A stretch of DNA of 64,000 nt from IMG/VR virus record IMGVR_UViG_3300028364_000013; one strand, written 5' to 3'. The notes under the pieces are model-generated. The model saw only the letters and a program-made list of their open reading frames with translations. It did no database searches and was not told where the DNA came from. This DNA is from a virus (taxonomy: Duplodnaviria; Caudoviricetes). Every line of letters begins with the position of its first letter. Within the stretch, counting starts at the first letter, position 1. A program made the position numbers and the translations under genes. Positions 22,234-31,227 of this stretch are shown here, one piece after another.

Positions 22234-23262
22234 TTATTTAATCAAAAATTCTTGAAGAGCTTTACTTCCGAACTCTCCTTTGGTTAAATTAATTATTTCT
22301 TTAACTGAATATTTTTCTTTCTTATTTATTTTCTCTCTCTCAACAAAGCCTTTAACACCAAAACCGCAGGCTCCAGTTATAGCTCGATAACAAGAAATTG
22401 CTTGCTCAAAACTTAACTCATCTGTTAGTTTTAAGCCTTTAAAATCATCTTTATTTACATCAGAATTTAACTTGTAAATTAAATCCTCTCTGGCTTCAGA
22501 AAGAGAGTCTCCATGAGCATATTTGCCACCCCCATTTGTAACCAAATAAAAAACCTTCTCTTCACATAACTTCTTAACTCTGAAAACACCGCCTCTCACA
22601 GAAATAATCTCTGTAAATATACCATCTGCCTTTATATATTTATCGCCCCACATAACTGGCCCAACCAATTTCGTGAAATCACAAGTCAAACCTCCCAAGT
22701 GCAAACTTCCTCCAACGGTTGGGTTAAATCCCTCTGGAATCGAAGTCAAACTGTTCAAGTCCAAAGTTCCTCCAACGGTTGGGTTAAATCCCTGTGGAAT
22801 CGAGGTCAAACCGCTCAAGTCCAAATATCCTCCAACGGTTGGGTTAAATCCCTCTGGAATCGAAGTCAACCTGTTCAAGTACAAACCTTCTCCAACAGTT
22901 GGGTTAAATCCCTCTGGAATCGAAGTCAACCTGTTCAAGTACAAACCTTCTCCAACAGTTGGGTTAAATCCCTCTGGAATCGAAGTCAACCTGTTCAAGT
23001 ACAAATATCCTCCAACGGTTGGGTTAAATCCCTCTGGAATCGAGGTCAACCTGTTCAAGTACAAACTTCCTCCAACGGTTGGGTTAAATCCCTCTGGAAT
23101 CGAAGTCAAGCTGTCCAAGTACAAACTTCCTCCAACGGTTGGGTTAAATCCCTCTGGAATCGAAGTCAAGCTGTCCAAGTCCAAAGTTCCATTTATTTTA
23201 ACTTCACCAGTAAACTGCTCTTCAGTTAAATTGTATTCCTTGCAAAATTCTTTTTTATTCAT
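22234..23262 (-). CDS. Tandem 20-aa LRR-like repeat protein, paralog of 9247..10275
   Basis: Same length (342 aa) and repeat architecture. Confidence 0.85.
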   Translation of the reverse strand: MNKKEFCKEYNLTEEQFTGEVKINGTLDLDSLTSIPEGFNPTVGGSLYLDSLTSIPEGFNPTVGGSLYLNRLTSIPEGFNPTVGGYLYLNRLTSIPEGFNPTVGEGLYLNRLTSIPEGFNPTVGEGLYLNRLTSIPEGFNPTVGGYLDLSGLTSIPQGFNPTVGGTLDLNSLTSIPEGFNPTVGGSLHLGGLTCDFTKLVGPVMWGDKYIKADGIFTEIISVRGGVFRVKKLCEEKVFYLVTNGGGKYAHGDSLSEAREDLIYKLNSDVNKDDFKGLKLTDELSFEQAISCYRAITGACGFGVKGFVEREKINKKEKYSVKEIINLTKGEFGSKALQEFLIK

Positions 23263-23346
23263 AATGTTTTTTTCTTCAGAAACCCAATCATCACCGCATG
23301 TGTGGTTGGGTTATTGACATTATACGCAGTAAATCAAAAAATGTTC

Positions 23347-23616
23347 TTAATCTTCAGAAGCATTTTTCTGCATCTCTTCCACAAAGTTTCCAAAATGCAA
23401 CACCAAAGCGGGTTCATAACCAAACATTTTAAATGGATGCTCTGAAGCAAGTATCACATCCATCGGAGATTTAGGATACCAACTTTCAGCTTTTTCATCA
23501 CCCACTATTTTTCTCAAATACTTATCAAACTCAGGCCACATTTCATCGAGACCATCATTACTCAACTCAACACCTGGGTATTGAATTCTTACAAAATGTC
23601 TAAAACAATCTTTCAT
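23347..23616 (-). CDS. Hypothetical protein
   Basis: ORF with upstream promoter motif. Confidence 0.65.
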   Translation of the reverse strand: MKDCFRHFVRIQYPGVELSNDGLDEMWPEFDKYLRKIVGDEKAESWYPKSPMDVILASEHPFKMFGYEPALVLHFGNFVEEMQKNASED

Positions 23617-23661
23617 TCTACTTTATACGTAAAATAATTAAAAATGTTTCAGAGATAGCGG

Positions 23662-24468
23662 TCAGATTGTATAATTTTCATCCCACTCCCTAATTTTCTC
23701 TTTCAATTCTTCTAACGTTATTGAACTATCGTAGTTCTTGACATTATTATCACTATGTTTCATCAACCCGCAGTTTGCTGGGTGAGCTATTATCTCTGGA
23801 GCAACCTTATTAATAAAACCATCTCTTACACTATACGAATGGTCTCTACTGACCCCGTTAATATTATTTCCTTTATTTGATGGGCTGTACCAACCATGTT
23901 GTTCAATCAATGTGAAATTAAATTCTTCTTTAAAATCTCTAACATCAAACTTAAACTCACACGCAGGCCGATAAGCCTCGTAATATTCCATCCTACAATC
24001 GTCACAAATCAACTTATGCTTCTTGGATACTTTAAATTCATCACAATATCTACACTTCTTTTTTCCATTCACTTTTTTGGTTCTTTTTTCTATACTAATT
24101 CCACCTTTCCATCTTGAATTATTTTCTCCACTATTCTTTTTTATTGTTTCATCACTTACTACATGCCCAAAAAGACTTTCTCCTATCTTTTTTTTAGTTT
24201 CATTACTATGAGTACTTCCAAAATTATTAAATGAAGCAGAACAAGAACTTGAACAGAATTTTCTTTTTGATTTAATTAAATCAAAAAAACTTACACCGCA
24301 GTTATTACAACTATATTCTTTATGATTAATGATATTCAACCCTAATCTATAACACCTATTTCTAACACTACTTTTAGTGACCCCTATAACTTGAGCAATA
24401 TCTTCATGTTTTTTACCAATAAGAATTAATTTCCTTAACTCTTCATCCAAATTTTTACTCCATCTCAT
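23662..24468 (-). CDS. Putative HNH-type homing endonuclease with NUMOD3-like segment
   Basis: HSNETKKKIGES, VSRDH..HPANC..N. Confidence 0.7.
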   Translation of the reverse strand: MRWSKNLDEELRKLILIGKKHEDIAQVIGVTKSSVRNRCYRLGLNIINHKEYSCNNCGVSFFDLIKSKRKFCSSSCSASFNNFGSTHSNETKKKIGESLFGHVVSDETIKKNSGENNSRWKGGISIEKRTKKVNGKKKCRYCDEFKVSKKHKLICDDCRMEYYEAYRPACEFKFDVRDFKEEFNFTLIEQHGWYSPSNKGNNINGVSRDHSYSVRDGFINKVAPEIIAHPANCGLMKHSDNNVKNYDSSITLEELKEKIREWDENYTI

Positions 24469-24523
24469 ATTAATAAATATGATAAAAAAAGCAAAAACAA
24501 GATTTCGAGCCAGTATGATTTTG

Positions 24524-24595
24524 AGACAGCGAAGGGATTCAAACCCTTATAACCACACTTTGCAGGTGCGTACCTTATCAATCGGCCACGCTGTC
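24524..24595 (-). tRNA. tRNA-Cys(GCA)
   Basis: CGCAC-CTGCAAA-GTGTG, U73. Confidence 0.88.
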
Positions 24596-24608
24596 TTATA
24601 TTTTATTG

Positions 24609-24693
24609 AGGTCAGGGAGGGATTCAAACCCCCGATGGGCTTGCGCCTACAGATTTGCAGTCTGTCGTCTTCAATCACTCGAACCACCCGACC
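24609..24693 (-). tRNA. tRNA-Cys(GCA) with long variable arm
   Basis: ACAGA-CTGCAAA-TCTGT, variable hairpin GGC-GCAA-GCC, U73. Confidence 0.85.
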
Positions 24694-24712
24694 TTATAAA
24701 GGGGAAAGTCAA

Positions 24713-25384
24713 TTAAGACCTTCCACCTTTACAGATTATATCAGCTGCACAAGTTGCAGCCCAAGAGTTAGGCTTAAACCTTACTCTGTATCCTAATCCC
24801 TCAAGATGCGCTTTTGCAGCAGCATAAACAATGTGGGACCTGTTCTTTGGAATACCTGGAGACTTACCTGCTCTGATAAGTTCTTTTTGCCAAGAAGTCC
24901 AACCAGCATCTGGGTTAATGTCAATATCAATATCAACTAACTTGGTTTGGTTTGACTTGTAACCTTTAGCAACAGCTTCTTCTGGTGTCATCCTCTTGTA
25001 CTTCCCTTCAAGCTCTCTCTCAAAGTATTCTCCAAGTTCGAAAAGCCTTTCGGTTTCATGCCAGATTCTTTGGAAAATAGATGAAGTCAAATTCTTTCTG
25101 TGAAGCTCTTTGTCTTTAACTTTGTTTCCAGTCTTGCTGAATTTAACTTGGTTACCAGAAATAAGCTCTCTATTGAAAATGTAGTGTACACCGTCATTTC
25201 TGTCGTTATCGTAAAACGCTACAACATCTGCATACATAATTTTTCTACCATTTCTTCTTACATCAGAGTCGCATCCAATGTAAACAGTTTCTCCTGGAAA
25301 TTTCTCAATGTGTCCTCTAACGTACTCACCAAGGTCAGCAATTATTTCACCTCCAAATTTCTTAAATACTCTTTCTTCCATCAT
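24713..25384 (-). CDS. YkuK/DUF458-like RNase H-fold protein
   Basis: VYIGCDSD start motif, IDIDINPD, WAATCAAD. Confidence 0.7.
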   Translation of the reverse strand: MMEERVFKKFGGEIIADLGEYVRGHIEKFPGETVYIGCDSDVRRNGRKIMYADVVAFYDNDRNDGVHYIFNRELISGNQVKFSKTGNKVKDKELHRKNLTSSIFQRIWHETERLFELGEYFERELEGKYKRMTPEEAVAKGYKSNQTKLVDIDIDINPDAGWTSWQKELIRAGKSPGIPKNRSHIVYAAAKAHLEGLGYRVRFKPNSWAATCAADIICKGGRS

Positions 25385-25475
25385 TTCTTCTTTTTTTAGT
25401 AGTCCTAAAAAGTTGTCAGTTTTTTCCAGTCTAATTCATCATTATTACTTGTTTTTTGTTTTTAAATTTGCGCAT

Positions 25476-25512
25476 AAAAAAAAGCCCAAACTATTCGAGA
25501 TAGCTTGAGCTT
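25476..25512 (-). terminator. Intrinsic terminator (attenuator) ahead of the YkuK-like gene and tRNA-Cys pair
   Basis: AAGCTCAAGCTAT..ATAGTTTGGGCTT plus T-run. Confidence 0.8.
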
Positions 25513-25536
25513 AAAATTTCTTTTATTATTATAAAT

Positions 25537-25647
25537 CTACTTCATAACACTCAAACTAACGTTTTTTTTGCAAAACGGACATACCCCTTCCAGGCCGCAA
25601 TCAATCGCTTGCGAAGTTGGTCTCCAATATGTCATGTTAGTTTTCAT
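25537..25647 (-). CDS. Putative leader peptide, Cys-containing: MKTNMTYWRPTSQAIDCGLEGVCPFCKKNVSLSVMK
   Basis: 36-aa ORF with 3 Cys, upstream TATTTATA; terminator then two tRNA-Cys follow. Confidence 0.7.
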   Translation of the reverse strand: MKTNMTYWRPTSQAIDCGLEGVCPFCKKNVSLSVMK

Positions 25648-25669
25648 CTGTTTATAAATATATTATTTT

Positions 25670-25945
25670 TTATCCAAGCAGCAATCCGCTCTTTTTTTCT
25701 TGTTTTTTTGCATCTTTCCATTTCCATCCGAGGAAGAATCTGGTACACGCTCTATGAAACCAATTTGGCTTCTTTGTATAGTTGAAGACGATTGAACCTT
25801 CTACTTGGTTGCTTCCTGTTATATCATATCCTCCAACAACTGGTGGTGGAGTGTATATTTTAACATCTGCAACATCAATTGCTTCATCAATTTCTGGCTT
25901 TTTTCTTTCACCAGAATATTCTTGTTCTTCCCAATATATATTCAT
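25670..25945 (-). CDS. Hypothetical protein
   Basis: 91-aa ORF. Confidence 0.65.
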   Translation of the reverse strand: MNIYWEEQEYSGERKKPEIDEAIDVADVKIYTPPPVVGGYDITGSNQVEGSIVFNYTKKPNWFHRACTRFFLGWKWKDAKKQEKKSGLLLG

Positions 25946-26022
25946 ATTGTAAATATATAAAAATAATATTTAATATCAAATTAATAACCTTTTATTTACG
26001 CAGGGACTTATATTATTAATTG

Positions 26023-26096
26023 TGGGCCCCATCAGACTCGAACTGATAACCTTTTCATTATGAGTGAAATACACTAACCAATTGTGTTAGAGGCCC
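26023..26096 (-). tRNA. tRNA with CAT anticodon (Ile2 or elongator Met)
   Basis: TTTCA-CTCATAA-TGAAA; GGGCC acceptor suggests Ile2. Confidence 0.85.
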
Positions 26097-26106
26097 TTAA
26101 ATTTTG

Positions 26107-26183
26107 TCGGGAAGGTGAGATTCGAACTCACATGTAACCAATTACCCTTTCTACAAGATATAAGCTTGAGGGGATACAACCCG
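26107..26183 (-). ncRNA. Rearranged tRNA-like RNA with TAT (Ile) anticodon hairpin
   Basis: Canonical T-arm GTGAG-TTCGAAT-CTCAC; CAAG-CTTATAT-CTTG hairpin lies before a D-loop-like TAATTGG. Confidence 0.6.
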
Positions 26184-26225
26184 ATACATATGTCTATTTC
26201 ACTTTCCATTTTATTTATTTTTTTG

Positions 26226-26323
26226 TGGACAATACGAGAATCGAACTCGTATCTCCAGTTTGCGCTATCCTGTGTGGTTGCACTTCATAGCCTTCACCGA
26301 TTTACCAATTAATCTAATTGCCC
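26226..26323 (-). ncRNA. tRNA-like RNA with expanded, non-canonical anticodon region
   Basis: Acceptor GGGCAAT/ATTGTCC, D-arm and T-arm intact; ~45-nt insert with GCTAT/ATAGC pairing. Confidence 0.6.
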
Positions 26324-26328
26324 TTTTG

Positions 26329-26398
26329 TTGGTGTAGAGGGACTCAAACCCCCGACCCCCTGAATTACAGGTGCTCTAATCAACTGAGCTATACACCG
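26329..26398 (-). ncRNA. tRNA-like RNA with collapsed anticodon loop and C1xA72
   Basis: CCTG-TAATT-CAGG (5-nt loop), otherwise a cloverleaf. Confidence 0.6.
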
Positions 26399-26442
26399 AA
26401 CTCTTCAATCGCCTTAAGTCGATTTCCGAGCTACTTAAGTAG

Positions 26443-26525
26443 TAGTGACGGTGGGAATTGAACCCACTTTGTACTTACGTACCCACGTTATCAGCGTGGT
26501 GCCTAAACCATCCAGCCCCGTCACT
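26443..26525 (-). tRNA. tRNA-Ile(GAT) with long variable arm
   Basis: CCACG-CTGATAA-CGTGG, variable hairpin GTAC-GTAA-GTAC. Confidence 0.82.
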
Positions 26526-26536
26526 ATAAAAACTCT

Positions 26537-26773
26537 TTAGAAGAGTCTTTCTATTTCAATCCAAGTATAGGAATAAACTCCATTTTGAACTGGTATTCTT
26601 TTGCTAATATCCGCTCTTAACACTTTGAACATTGGATACTCTACCAAAAATCTTTCAAGCGCCTCGCTTGGCGTTATCATGTCTCCATCAAAATCAACAA
26701 GCCCGCCAACTACTTCCCACTTGTGTGATTGCCTCCATGTAGTGCAAATACTAAATAAAATATACTCTTCCAT
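26537..26773 (-). CDS. Hypothetical protein
   Basis: 78-aa ORF. Confidence 0.6.
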   Translation of the reverse strand: MEEYILFSICTTWRQSHKWEVVGGLVDFDGDMITPSEALERFLVEYPMFKVLRADISKRIPVQNGVYSYTWIEIERLF

Positions 26774-26780
26774 TGCTCTA

Positions 26781-27551
26781 TTAATTCTTTACTTCATCTA
26801 AAATATTATATTTTAAACACCATTTTCTAACTGTATTATCAGAAACTGCATACTTATTTCCAACCCTTGTAAAATATTTAAATTTTTTAAAATCATCCAA
26901 TAGAACCATTTTGTTTGGTATTCTGCTTTTTCTTTTACAATTATATTCTTTGCACCACTTTTTAATTACACCCAATGAAACCCCTAAGTGTTTAGATAAT
27001 TCTAAATCACTTTTAAATTTCGAAAATACCAACACAAATTCTTCTTTATTTATTTTTGGTAAAATATTTATTTCACTAATTACCTTTCCAAGTTTTTCAT
27101 ATTCTCTTTTTATTTTATGACATCTTTTATAATTACCACCTTTAGGGGTTAATCCAGTTTGTATTAATGACTTTCTCATATTCCAGTCATTAATCAACAA
27201 ATATTCTAATAATTTTTCATTACTAATTTTTTCTTTTTTTATTTTATTTCTACCCCTCCAATTACTTGTTAAACCATGGCAGTTTGGACATAGACACTCA
27301 AGGTTTGTTTTTTTATTATTTGTATTATCCCCATCAATGTGATTAATTTCCAAAGGTATATTACACCCTTGCCATTTATTTAATTTACATTTTTTACAAG
27401 TTCTTTTATTTTCATATATAATATATTCTCTAATCATATCCCAAGATAAATCATCAAAATTTTTACTTAAAATATATTCTTCACGTTTTTTTCTTTCTTC
27501 TAAATTATATAACTCCTTTTTTTCACTAATTCTTAACCACTGACTTGACAT
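26781..27551 (-). CDS. HNH homing endonuclease with C-terminal HTH modules
   Basis: CKKC..LEINHIDGDNTNN...CLCPNCH. Confidence 0.85.
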   Translation of the reverse strand: MSSQWLRISEKKELYNLEERKKREEYILSKNFDDLSWDMIREYIIYENKRTCKKCKLNKWQGCNIPLEINHIDGDNTNNKKTNLECLCPNCHGLTSNWRGRNKIKKEKISNEKLLEYLLINDWNMRKSLIQTGLTPKGGNYKRCHKIKREYEKLGKVISEINILPKINKEEFVLVFSKFKSDLELSKHLGVSLGVIKKWCKEYNCKRKSRIPNKMVLLDDFKKFKYFTRVGNKYAVSDNTVRKWCLKYNILDEVKN

Positions 27552-27637
27552 AATATTTGTTTTTTATTATAAATATTATGAAAAAAGTAAAAGTTCGATT
27601 TTTTGTTAAATTAATTCGAACTTTTACTTTAAATTAG

Positions 27638-27710
27638 TCTCCCCGATAGGACTTGAACCTATTCTCTTTCGATTAAAAGTCGAAGGCTTCCCCTGTTAAG
27701 CTACGAGGAG
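27638..27710 (-). tRNA. tRNA-Lys(TTT)
   Basis: TTCGA-CTTTTAA-TCGAA. Confidence 0.88.
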
Positions 27711-27726
27711 GTTTTTAATTCTTTCG

Positions 27727-27798
27727 TGAACCCACCGAGAGTCGAACTCGGTTCCATAGATTAAGAGTCTATAGCATCACCACTAATGCTTTGGGTCC
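27727..27798 (-). tRNA. tRNA-Lys(CTT)
   Basis: ATAGA-CTCTTAA-TCTAT. Confidence 0.9.
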
Positions 27799-27899
27799 AG
27801 AATATGTTTATTATCAAGGCCTGCAACTCTATTGCTTGAGCAAGCCTCTTAACGTTTCTTATATTTCATCTTTTTATATTTCATTTTCTTTCTTTTTTG

Positions 27900-27972
27900 A
27901 GCTGTTGACAGGGGTCGAACCTGCGACATCTTCATTACAAGTGAAGTGCTCTACCAACTGAGCTACAACAGC
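27900..27972 (-). tRNA. tRNA-Thr(TGT)
   Basis: CTTCA-CTTGTAA-TGAAG. Confidence 0.93.
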
Positions 27973-27990
27973 ATATTATTATTTTTCTTG

Positions 27991-28063
27991 AGCTGGAGAT
28001 GGGTCTCGAACCCACAGCCTACTGCTTACAAAACAGTCGCACAACCAATCGTGCTCCTCCAGC
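27991..28063 (-). tRNA. tRNA-Thr(TGT)
   Basis: ACTGT-TTTGTAA-GCAGT. Confidence 0.9.
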
Positions 28064-28069
28064 ATTTTA

Positions 28070-28750
28070 TTACCAAGATTTTCCTTCTTTATAATTTTTT
28101 CTTCTTCTCTTTCTTCTTCTACTATACCTACCATCCCCTTCTGATATAGCTTTCCAACTTTTAGTTAATGCATGATGATTTGGGCATAAAATCTGCAAAT
28201 TATCTACTTTATTATTATCTGGATTACAATCTACATGATGCAACTCCAGCGGTATTTTACCTGAATATTTATTTACCTCTTTCCATCCGCACTCCATGCA
28301 TTTTTCTCCATGTATAGATATAAGATAAGTCTTATAAATTTTGGTATGCTCAGTAGTATATTCTCCTTTTTCTATTTTATCAAAAATCTCTTTTCTTTGA
28401 AATTCTTGTTGACACTTATTATTACAATATTTCTTATTTCCATCTATCTGCTCTTTACAGTTTGTACAATTATTAAACTTTTTTCTTTTTCTATTGTTAT
28501 AACTCACCCCACATGATTTGCAACAAAACTTTTTTGGATTAGACTTATTAACTTCAAACCCACATTTACACTCTAAACAACTCCTATCCTCACTACTTGA
28601 ATTATGTTCTGAAAATTTAACTCCAGATTTATTCATTTTATTCCTAACAGAATCAACACTCCTATTTAATTCTTCAGCTATATGATGAAATCTAAACCCA
28701 TCTATAACAAGCTTTTTAGCTTTTTCAAACTCTTCTTTGCTCCATTTCAT
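28070..28750 (-). CDS. HNH homing endonuclease
   Basis: CMECG..LELHHVDCNPDNN...ILCPNHH. Confidence 0.85.
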   Translation of the reverse strand: MKWSKEEFEKAKKLVIDGFRFHHIAEELNRSVDSVRNKMNKSGVKFSEHNSSSEDRSCLECKCGFEVNKSNPKKFCCKSCGVSYNNRKRKKFNNCTNCKEQIDGNKKYCNNKCQQEFQRKEIFDKIEKGEYTTEHTKIYKTYLISIHGEKCMECGWKEVNKYSGKIPLELHHVDCNPDNNKVDNLQILCPNHHALTKSWKAISEGDGRYSRRRKRRRKNYKEGKSW

Positions 28751-28830
28751 ATCTATCTATTTTATAATAAATAGTTAAAAATAATGAGCTTTCAAAATTA
28801 TTCGAAAACTATACCACTTTCATATACCAG

Positions 28831-28904
28831 AGCCTTGTATGGGACTCGAACCCATCTTTCAGACTTACCGAATCTGTACATCAATCCAACAATGCTTACA
28901 AGGC
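28831..28904 (-). tRNA. tRNA-Thr(GGT), C at position 33
   Basis: CAGAT-TCGGTAA-GTCTG. Confidence 0.8.
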
Positions 28905-28930
28905 ATATTTCAAATAACTTTTACTTTTTG

Positions 28931-29016
28931 GGTGAAAGATGGGTTCTGACCCCACGACCTCCCGATTCACAGTCGGGCGCTCTACGACTTTCGTCTCCAG
29001 CTGAGCTACAATCACC
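28931..29016 (-). tRNA. tRNA-His(GTG) with hairpin insertion in the D-loop
   Basis: CCCGA-CTGTGAA-TCGGG; G-1/C73; D-loop AGCTGGA-GAC-GAAA-GTC-GTA. Confidence 0.82.
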
Positions 29017-29053
29017 ATATTAAATTAAAAAGAACTTTTTCTTTTTTTTGTTG

Positions 29054-29126
29054 AGGACCCACCGAGACTCGAACTCGAAATCGCAGATTAACAGTCTGAA
29101 GTGATAACCAATTTCACCATAGGTCC
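29054..29126 (-). tRNA. tRNA-Asn(GTT)
   Basis: CAGA-CTGTTAA-TCTG. Confidence 0.88.
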
Positions 29127-29136
29127 TTAATTTATT

Positions 29137-29595
29137 TTATTTACTCTTTTCTATTTCTTCATGTATTTCAGCATGACAATTAGAACACACTAAAATACAT
29201 TTATCTAATTCTTTTTTTACTTTTTCCCAAGACCTCGTATAACCTTTGTGACCTATACCAAATTCTTTTTCATTTGGGTTTAAATGATGAAACTCTAAAG
29301 CTCTACTACATTTATTATACCCACACCTTTCACAACAACCACCTTTATACTCAATTGACAATTGCTTAACCTTTTTCCTTCTATTTTGAACTGCTTCAAC
29401 ATTTTTCTTTCTTTTATCTTCTTTTTGAAGGGGTGATAAAGTTCTTTTACTTACATATTCTAACACTGTAGTTTTACTCACTCCAAACTCTTTAGCTACA
29501 ATCCTTGATGATTTTCCAGAATTATACTCTTTTTTAATTAATTTAATTAGTTCTTCACTAATTTTTTTTCCTTTTTTACTTTTTAATTCGTCCAT
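29137..29595 (-). CDS. HNH endonuclease with N-terminal HTH
   Basis: CERCGY..ALEFHH..CILVCSNCHAEIH. Confidence 0.85.
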   Translation of the reverse strand: MDELKSKKGKKISEELIKLIKKEYNSGKSSRIVAKEFGVSKTTVLEYVSKRTLSPLQKEDKRKKNVEAVQNRRKKVKQLSIEYKGGCCERCGYNKCSRALEFHHLNPNEKEFGIGHKGYTRSWEKVKKELDKCILVCSNCHAEIHEEIEKSK

Positions 29596-29649
29596 AATAT
29601 TAACTTTGTTTGTTAAAAAATAGGACTAAATTTTTCAAAGCATCACTTG

Positions 29650-29721
29650 CGACTCCAACGGGGCTCGAACCCATAACAAATGATTAACAGTCAAACGTGA
29701 TACCAATTTCACCATAGAGTC
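29650..29721 (-). tRNA. tRNA-Asn(GTT)
   Basis: TGA-CTGTTAA-TCA, G73. Confidence 0.85.
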
Positions 29722-29770
29722 ATATTTCAAATTTTAAGATTCTGAACGTTTCTCAAAAACCTTTGGACAC

Positions 29771-29799
29771 AAAAAAAGCCCGACCTATTGGCCGAGCTT
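29771..29799 (-). terminator. Intrinsic terminator (attenuator) ahead of the Asn/His/Thr/Lys cluster
   Basis: AAGCTCGGC-CAATAG-GTCGGGCTT plus T-run. Confidence 0.85.
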
Positions 29800-29825
29800 C
29801 TGTATATTTTAAATTGTACTTGTGA

Positions 29826-29936
29826 TTAAATTAGTTCATCACTTCCATTTTTGCTTATACATAGCTCGACCATACCATTTTGCTTTTTATTGCAAATCGT
29901 ATTATTAATCGTTGTATGTATATTTAATGAGTACAT
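29826..29936 (-). CDS. Putative leader peptide: MYSLNIHTTINNTICNKKQNGMVELCISKNGSDELI
   Basis: 36 aa; core NIHTTINNTICNKK matches the downstream Asn/His/Thr/Lys (and Ile) tRNAs. Confidence 0.8.
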   Translation of the reverse strand: MYSLNIHTTINNTICNKKQNGMVELCISKNGSDELI

Positions 29937-29981
29937 TGTGTTTCTTTTTTCTAAATAGTAATTAAAAATTCTTTTTTTGTT

Positions 29982-30052
29982 TTCTTCTACGCAAATATAT
30001 AACTTTTGTTCTATTAAATCCAAATCTTTTTTAAAGAAATATTGAAAATAAT
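29982..30052 (-). repeat. ~70-bp promoter module duplicated at 44382..44453
   Basis: Near-identical ...ctacgcaaatatataac.tttgttctattaaatccaaatctttttttaaagaaatattgaaaataatt; contains TATATTTG. Confidence 0.85.
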
Positions 30053-30115
30053 TCGTAACTGCTTGATAATCAAATAAAAAGGGAGTAAACTTTTTTTCAC
30101 TCCCTTTCAATTATT

Positions 30116-30415
30116 TTACCTGTTTGGCTGTGGTCTACGTGTCCACGTTCCATTTTCAAGTCTGTAAACTCCTTGTTTAACCCATTTCTCCCAGCCGTTA
30201 GATTTGATTTTGAAGTGGTCCTCCAAGTGTGATACAGTAAAATTCCAGGATTCGAATCGACCTAAGCCTGATTCATCTCTCGCTATCCTGATAGCCTCTT
30301 GTTCCGATTTCTCTCTTGTCCAAGCTTCTGGTGTAGAAGTTTCGATGTAGAAAGAGGGGGCACGATGGCCAGCGCTGTGCTGGGTATCCACCCTCCATAA
30401 TCTTAGTTTATTCAT
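30116..30415 (-). CDS. Hypothetical protein
   Basis: 99-aa ORF. Confidence 0.65.
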   Translation of the reverse strand: MNKLRLWRVDTQHSAGHRAPSFYIETSTPEAWTREKSEQEAIRIARDESGLGRFESWNFTVSHLEDHFKIKSNGWEKWVKQGVYRLENGTWTRRPQPNR

Positions 30416-30492
30416 AATATGAATTTAATCCATTGACTAAATCCAAGTTATGTGCTATCGAGGTAATATGTTTTTGTGTTCTTCATGCGTTT

Positions 30493-31227
30493 TTAAATAA
30501 GTATTTTTTTTGTAATCTCATCCCAACGTGCCTCAAGCATTTTGCAATAAGCAATTTTATTTAGTCCATATGCACTAAGACCAAATGCGTCATTCATTTC
30601 TATAAGAAGCGTTTTTCCATCTGCAGTAACTCCGAAATCAATTGAGTAAGCCATTGGCTGAACTGCATAATCTCTTATTGCAGACTCAATAATACTATAA
30701 TCTGGAGATATAGTAAAGTCCCCAGTATAATTCTTGCTCCCTATAAGACCTCCATTTAATACAAAACATCTATACTCTGTGACAAAATCAACACATTCTG
30801 ACACTATCAAAGGAGTGTTCGGATTGCATCTAAGCTTCGCTTGCAACAAGTCATGCTTTGATTTAACTACATAACCAGTAAACAACTTATGCTGATATAG
30901 CGGCTTTATAAAGAAAGGAAAAGCTCCTTCTGTTTTAGAATATTCTTCAACATCTTTAAATTCCATTTCAAAAACTTTTCTTCCCATATATTCTGGAAGG
31001 TGGTGATGCGGATTATCTATCCTTGGCTGAAGTATGTGAAGCTCATCAAATATTTTTCTGATTGTATTGATTCCTCCTACAACAATTGGGTTTGTACTAT
31101 GATTAATTTCCTCTGAATTTTCAAAACCAATCACTCTATATCCCATTTGCCCAAAACCAGCAGCGGCTTCATAACAGTTAACGCTTAAGAATTTATTCCC
31201 AGCTCTTTGTATATAGACTTCTCTCAT
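30493..31227 (-). CDS. ATP-grasp domain protein (DUF4343-like)
   Basis: FFIKP..KLFTG, EYRCFV, AYSIDFGV..LIEMNDAF. Confidence 0.8.
   Translation of the reverse strand: MREVYIQRAGNKFLSVNCYEAAAGFGQMGYRVIGFENSEEINHSTNPIVVGGINTIRKIFDELHILQPRIDNPHHHLPEYMGRKVFEMEFKDVEEYSKTEGAFPFFIKPLYQHKLFTGYVVKSKHDLLQAKLRCNPNTPLIVSECVDFVTEYRCFVLNGGLIGSKNYTGDFTISPDYSIIESAIRDYAVQPMAYSIDFGVTADGKTLLIEMNDAFGLSAYGLNKIAYCKMLEARWDEITKKILI

Follow-up and report, generated by a model that had tools for sequence, protein, structure and literature searches.

Leader-peptide attenuation is the textbook mode of control of amino-acid biosynthesis. In the trp operon of Escherichia coli, the short trpL ORF has two adjacent Trp codons as the sensor, pairing of regions 1:2 and 3:4 alternates with pairing of regions 2:3, and the terminator lies before the genes. 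The pheM leader of pheST attenuates an aminoacyl-tRNA synthetase operon and contains a run of Phe codons. T-box leaders of Gram-positive bacteria bind tRNA directly, with no translation needed. A literature search found no leader-peptide attenuation gating tRNA genes themselves. The E. coli tRNA-Phe gene pheV was considered as a precedent with a Phe-rich leader and was rejected, as neither such an ORF nor a terminator lies upstream of it in strain MG1655.

The window described here is a stretch of 64,000 nt from a tailed-phage genome (IMG/VR record IMGVR_UViG_3300028364_000013; Caudoviricetes). The first-pass annotation had proposed on it a Cys attenuator in front of a gene of RNase H fold and two tRNA-Cys genes (Table 1). 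This proposal is supported by the comparison with relatives, where the reading frame, two Cys codons, the terminator, the complementarity and the spacing are conserved and the helix 1:2 covaries. A ribosome-mediated (leader-peptide) transcription attenuator with Cys codons as the sensor is the preferred reading, with a probability of roughly 0.6, and a translation-coupled attenuator of some kind appears highly probable.

Table 1. Coordinates of features of the Cys module and its surroundings (window numbering unless a relative is named)
Feature	Position	Strand	Basis
AT-rich TATATTTA-type box, ends 3 nt ahead of leader ATG	25662-25651	minus	shared by leaders, kept in relatives
Leader ORF, 36 codons + TAG stop	25647-25537	minus	ORF reading, frame kept in relatives
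Region 1 (codons 2-4), pairs with region 2; putative anti-antiterminator	25643-25636	minus	RNAalifold, covariation
Cys codon 17, TGC	25599-25597	minus	leader ORF
Cys codon 23, TGT	25581-25579	minus	leader ORF
Cys codon 26, TGC	25572-25570	minus	leader ORF
Region 2 (codons 30-33), near-copy of terminator 3' arm	25560-25549	minus	duplex energy, conservation
Intrinsic terminator: 13-pair stem, 5-nt loop, run of 8 T	25512-25476	minus	fold, conservation
Spacer between terminator and DUF458 gene (91 nt)	25475-25385	minus	comparison with relatives
Conserved mini-ORF in spacer, 2-3 codons	25442-25431	minus	
Spacer hairpin	about 25412-25390	minus	compensatory changes among relatives
DUF458/YkuK-family gene (PF04308), 223 aa	25384-24713	minus	Pfam match
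tRNA-Cys(GCA), 86 nt, long variable arm	24693-24608	minus	ARAGORN, Rfam
tRNA-Cys(GCA), 73 nt, ordinary form	24595-24523	minus	ARAGORN, Rfam
RtcB RNA ligase gene	21219-19792	minus	Pfam E-value 5e-77
Extra-long tRNA copies, window	24693-24608, 252-167, 26525-26442	minus	
Extra-long tRNA copies, relatives	L001 540-629, L003 585-675, L008 3675-3759		

Genome context and sister leaders

The contig of the window is 195 kb long, and all its 40 tRNA genes predicted by ARAGORN are on one strand. It has 30 strong coding-strand terminators, seven of which are preceded by an ORF of 26–39 codons ending 10–40 nt before the hairpin. tRNA genes were found within 1.2 kb downstream of six of these seven terminators and of none of the 23 others (Fisher P = 1e-5). 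These six include the Cys module, which alone among them has a protein gene before the tRNAs. The five sister leaders, at window positions 517, 4689, 29936, 44332, and 59877, contain codons for the amino acids of the respective tRNA clusters. Like the Cys leader, they have the upstream box, a similar start (the MKT-type start of the Cys leader is shared with two of them), a gap of 24–30 nt to a hairpin with 7–8 U, and tRNAs downstream. Their cognate codons form runs or dense blocks and the tRNAs follow directly, whereas the Cys leader has two to three scattered Cys codons and a protein gene first. The seventh mini-ORF terminator, in the 15504 region of the window (genome 124538, minus strand), has an ORF of 28 codons and a hairpin of -17.7 kcal/mol, and, unlike the other six, it lacks a tRNA gene in the 1.2 kb that follow; it could serve as a negative control or lead into a gene of another kind.

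Leader ORF and its relatives

The TGC, TGT, and TGC codons reported for the leader are present as codons 17, 23, and 26 of the ORF. Against a background of 1.27% Cys in the long ORFs of this phage, the probability of at least three Cys in 36 codons is about 0.01, and of at least two about 0.07. Among random small ORFs of this genome, at least three Cys codons occur in 13 of 216 and at least two in 21%. Taken alone, the Cys count of the window leader, already called weak in the first-pass annotation, is within chance for small ORFs and only suggestive. It is the comparison with relatives, and not this count, that carries the case for the leader.

Sixty homologues of the DUF458 protein, with 36–100% identity, were recognized. 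A scan of viral contigs with the single protein gave no relatives, the scan with an alignment gave two, and the phage GenBank collection yielded tRNA-like fragments only. Around the DUF458 homologues, 39 loci were fetched, and these contained 27 distinct homologous leaders from metagenomic phages, which fall into five leader families. The fetched loci contained no other mini-ORF/terminator modules and therefore provided no extra negative controls. Group A, with DUF458 at 67–91% identity, comprises 21 distinct leaders besides that of the window and has a uniform layout of tRNA-Met, an ORF of about 80–110 aa, leader, terminator, DUF458, and one to three tRNA-Cys genes. Two DUF458 relatives at about 42% identity (L011 and L034) have neither the leader nor tRNA-Cys, so the module is not universal for the DUF458 family.

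The leader ORF is 31–38 codons long across the 27 distinct relatives. Gap runs inside it are multiples of three, with the exception of one 2-nt run near an early stop that is an alignment artefact, while gaps in the spacer and loop are 1–7 nt. The ATG start is replaced by GTG in two relatives. The ORF is translatable and its frame is kept, from which we infer that it is translated. Conservation of the Cys codons in homologous leaders had been set beforehand as the refuting test for the proposal. Two of the three are invariant in 27 of 27 distinct leaders of all five families, a count that is not of independent cases since the relatives share ancestry, and the other residues have largely diverged. 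The first conserved Cys codon toggles between TGC (13 leaders) and TGT (7 leaders). The third Cys codon of the window, at position 26, is a gain specific to this leader. The distance from the stop to the hairpin is 21–28 nt in all relatives and 21–24 nt in group A (24 nt in the window). Group-A peptides keep also non-Cys residues, namely a T-Y-W block, S-Q, and P-F, and such conservation exceeds the need of a pure codon sensor.

The four further leader families (L031/35/36/39, L032/37, L038, and L010; groups B–E) have DUF458 proteins 41–52% identical to that of the window and leader peptides that share little with group A. One or two tRNA-Leu(UAA) genes start there 7–25 nt past the T-run, ahead of DUF458 and tRNA-Cys. 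Each of these families has at least two Cys codons in the leader, spaced 1–9 codons, and L038 has three Cys codons in the leader and three tRNA-Cys genes. TTA and TTG codons number 3–7 per leader where tRNA-Leu(UAA) lies downstream, compared with 1–2 in the 21 leaders without it. Enrichment of Leu, mostly as TTA/TTG, reached P = 0.003–0.012 in the two best-sampled divergent families and was not significant in the leaders of L038 and L010. The codon content of the leaders thus appears to follow the tRNA set behind the terminator, as predicted for an attenuator, and such tracking would be hard to explain for an unrelated small protein ORF. We regard it as consistent support and not as proof, because the single statistics are modest and the lineages are related.

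Terminator and putative RNA switch

The terminator stem is formed by 25512-25500 and 25494-25482 (13 pairs, -14.8 kcal/mol), and the terminator is kept in all relatives with enough upstream DNA. Region 2 of the leader is a near-copy of the 3' arm of the hairpin and therefore able to pair with the 5' arm. The 9-nt pairing claimed earlier between a leader segment and a terminator arm was found: the antiterminator segment TAGTTTGAG at 25558-25550 is complementary to CTCAAGCTA at 25509-25501 in the 5' arm, with nine pairs including one G-U, or ten when a flanking G-U is counted. The duplex has -12.7 kcal/mol in RNAduplex, a value equalled by three of 300 codon-shuffled ORFs. It outperforms codon-shuffled sequences in both group A and group B (0–8 of 300), and in L032 and L010 it was no better than shuffles.

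In 20 group-A sequences, RNAalifold predicted the terminator together with a helix 1:2 of eight pairs. In this helix, 93% of cells are paired, six cells are changed on both sides, and such a level was reached by one to two of 500 shuffles. The compensatory changes are A-U to U-A, present in five sequences, and C-G to U-A. They swap residues of the peptide (N/I at codon 4 and V/D at codon 30), which indicates selection on the RNA. Helix 2:3 is also paired in 93% of cells in the same 20 sequences, yet it is mostly invariant, and within group A it represents conservation with no covariation. A comparison of group A with group B shows a concerted shift of all three segments, the core GAGC/GCTC being replaced by GGGTT/AACCC.

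Ribosomes were modelled as a 28-nt footprint, and folds were computed on transcripts cut after the 5' arm. The 5' arm is paired to region 2 if the footprint is set on any Cys codon and mostly loses this partner if it is set on the stop codon, in the window and in most of nine modelled relatives. A ribosome waiting at a Cys codon leaves region 1 uncovered. When the full-length transcript is folded, the terminator has the lowest energy at nearly every ribosome position, so that the switch, if there is one, has to be kinetic, like that of classical attenuators. Region 2 reaches to 9 nt ahead of the stop and the 5' arm begins 24 nt past it, and in this model the stop position fits a terminating ribosome that masks region 2 but not region 3. 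Both conserved Cys codons sit in the 3' strands of predicted inner hairpins, so RNA pairing alone could hold them within group A. The Rfam T-box model gave no match at E-values up to 1 in 23000-31000, and no Rfam family matched on the leader stretch.

Upstream box and spacer

The TATATTTA-type box is common to all six leaders of the window and nearly invariant in the 20 group-A relatives, and group B has a canonical TAnnTTTG at the same distance. It may act as a promoter element of the -7 type or else mark the start of translation. Scans for sigma-70 promoters gave scores near the shuffle expectation and were left out of the argument.

A conserved 60-nt block with the mini-ORF, a TTGACA-like word, and a covarying hairpin lies between the terminator and the gene in most group-A loci, and it could hold a separate promoter. 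The 3' arm of the spacer hairpin is an A-rich stretch just upstream of the DUF458 start codon; mini-ORF and hairpin may take part in translational or processing control. L009 and L019 do not have the block, and just 21–23 nt separate the T-run from the DUF458 start in these loci. In groups B–E the tRNA-Leu gene directly follows the T-run, and tRNA-Cys lies 14–21 nt behind DUF458 (19 nt past its stop in the window). From these tight gaps, the genes would depend on read-through, at least in a part of the family.

Genes behind the terminator

A YkuK/DUF458-like gene was indeed found between the terminator and the two tRNA-Cys genes, as previously annotated. The PF04308 match has 31.8 bits against a cut-off of 25 and covers residues 193–218 only, a C-terminal stretch; the same family stands in the precomputed annotation of most homologues of this protein. 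The AlphaFold model has a pLDDT of 92. Nearly all of its best structural matches are to proteins of RNase H-like type (RNase H1/H2, EndoV, NurA, and RT), with middling scores (Foldseek E 0.01; VIA Z 6–7.4; rmsd 3.8–5 over 116–137 residues). These predicted fold matches agree with the published assignment of YkuK to the RNase H-like superfamily (PMC3985635), beyond which the literature on DUF458 offered nothing functional. A PDB sequence search with the DUF458 profile gave nothing meaningful.

RtcB lies 0.1–3 kb downstream of the tRNA-Cys genes in nearly all loci. The next strong same-strand terminator of the window past DUF458 and tRNA-Cys is at 19786-19763, right behind RtcB, and in L003 RtcB starts 34 nt after tRNA-Cys with neither hairpin nor T-run between. 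The gated unit therefore probably reaches RtcB as its last gene, and the genes under the switch would be DUF458, tRNA-Cys, and probably RtcB. A tRNA-related role of DUF458 had been suggested earlier. It is partly supported, by the conserved synteny with tRNA-Cys and RtcB: the place of the gene between a putative tRNA-sensing switch, tRNA-Cys, and RtcB suggests that it may have such a role. Some loci carry RNA ligase, aminoacyl-tRNA-synthetase fragments, NUDIX, and HAD genes near DUF458 and RtcB. The neighbourhoods of L001–L010 and of the window look like a conserved set for tRNA supply and repair.

HNH/homing-endonuclease-like genes lie amid the tRNA genes at 23662-24468, 26781-27551, and 28070-28750 on the minus strand. 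That at 23662-24468 splits tRNA-Cys from the genes toward RtcB and is absent at this place in L003. Extra copies of 83–92 nt occur beside normal copies of the normally short-armed tRNAs for Cys, Gln, and Ile, and in relatives for Lys and His. The 86-nt tRNA-Cys copy has, in the ARAGORN drawing, a long variable arm of class-II-like form. These extra-long copies could be decoys, tRNAs with altered identity elements, or cleavage-resistant tRNAs. At 26398-26107 (minus strand), three tRNA-like genes were detected by Rfam and missed by ARAGORN. With introns allowed, 26323-26225 reads as a tRNA-Cys(GCA) whose anticodon loop carries an insert of 9 nt, and L005 has a plain tRNA-Cys at the matching place. 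Relatives have tRNAs with two-letter 'anticodons' at the place of window 26107-26398.

Proposed mechanism and alternatives

Transcription would enter the leader from the upstream box or from the preceding tRNA unit. With no delay, the ribosome would reach the TAG, cover region 2, and leave the 5' arm of the terminator free; the 13-pair hairpin with its U8 tract would then form, and transcription would end at 25476. When Cys-tRNA is short, the ribosome would wait at codon 17, 23, or 26, with the nested leader helices kept open. Region 2, which begins at least 12 nt past the last Cys codon, would remain free and capture the new 5' arm, the terminator would be blocked, and RNA polymerase would continue. 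The read-through transcript would yield DUF458, two tRNA-Cys, and probably the genes up to RtcB. If no ribosome is present at all, region 1 would hold region 2, and termination would follow. With Cys codons in the leader and a switchable stop behind it, DUF458 and tRNA-Cys are therefore probably made mainly while Cys codons are read slowly.

Against Cys as the sensed amino acid stands that just two sensor codons are conserved and that these are not adjacent. The element may be a translation-coupled attenuator that is not Cys-specific and senses general translation capacity, or stalls ribosomes via its conserved peptide (e.g., C-P-F), the Cys codons being bystanders held by RNA pairing. This would account for the several conserved non-Cys residues of group A, for the position of both Cys codons in predicted stems, and for there being merely two to three of them. 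Families B–E, however, lose the C-P-F and T-Y-W blocks and keep at least two Cys codons in different contexts, Leu codons turn up where tRNA-Leu is gated, and the five sister leaders bear the amino acids of their own clusters, and we consider a sensor indifferent to Cys unlikely.

The module could alternatively be an ordinary operon end, with the terminator closing the upstream tRNA/ORF unit, the 36-codon ORF as a small protein gene, and DUF458 and tRNA-Cys expressed from a promoter of their own in the spacer. The terminator is strong, read-through past it is putative, group A shows good conservation of the peptide, and the 60-nt block contains the TTGACA-like word. But that block is lacking in L009 and L019, where 21–23 nt are left, a tRNA gene lies 7–25 nt past the T-run in groups B–E, and the hairpin covariation in the block points to an RNA element. 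Furthermore, the covariation of helix 1:2 is paid for by changed amino acids, and from group to group the leader segment changes along with the terminator arm. Taken together, an operon end seems quite unlikely. A random small ORF that happens to lie before a terminator, with fortuitous 9-nt complementarity, could have its Cys codons by chance, as the 21% of random small ORFs with at least two of them indicate. It could hardly have kept frame, Cys codons, spacing, and complementarity in 27 distinct relatives, nor does it agree with the genome-wide link of mini-ORF terminators with tRNA genes; such a coincidence is very improbable and already contradicted by the comparative data.

The Cys-sensing attenuator may also be part of a wider system for tRNA supply and repair. 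Stalling at Cys codons, and in relatives also at Leu codons, would then result from depletion or cleavage of host tRNAs, e.g., by a tRNA-targeting defence, and would induce replacement tRNAs together with the RNase H-like nuclease DUF458 and the ligase RtcB. We offer this as a tentative and somewhat doubtful extension; if it is true, DUF458 would gain a role in tRNA processing or repair.

Comparison with known systems

If the proposed attenuation is real, it forms a direct feedback loop, in which slow decoding of a codon induces the tRNA that reads the same codon, and it would explain how tRNA genes are dosed in large phages that have dozens of them. To this the Cys module adds that many uncultured phages share the design, that leader codons appear to be rewritten when the gated tRNA set changes, and that the uncharacterized DUF458 would be gated beside RtcB, which provides a testable link to tRNA biology.

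T-box leaders are similar to the Cys leader in responding to tRNA charging by a choice between terminator and antiterminator, but neither a T-box nor another Rfam family was matched on the Cys leader stretch. With pheM, the Cys leader has in common that the supply side of tRNA charging would be attenuated and that the cognate codons would be the sensor; pheM controls a synthetase through a run of Phe codons, whereas the Cys leader would control the tRNA genes themselves. The likeness to trpL is in the two conserved sensor codons for a rare amino acid, in the four RNA regions for 1:2 and 3:4 versus 2:3 pairing, in a stop placed so that a terminating ribosome would mask region 2, and in the terminator before the regulated genes. 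It differs from trpL in that its two conserved sensor codons are 5–6 codons apart and not adjacent, its region 1 lies at codons 2–4, which a ribosome stalled at the sensors would leave uncovered, and its ORF is longer (31–38 codons) and located in a phage genome. In place of biosynthetic enzymes, it would control tRNA genes, an RNase H-like protein, and probably RtcB. The mechanism would be classical, and for its targets, phage tRNA genes and an RNase H-like gene, the literature search revealed no precedent.
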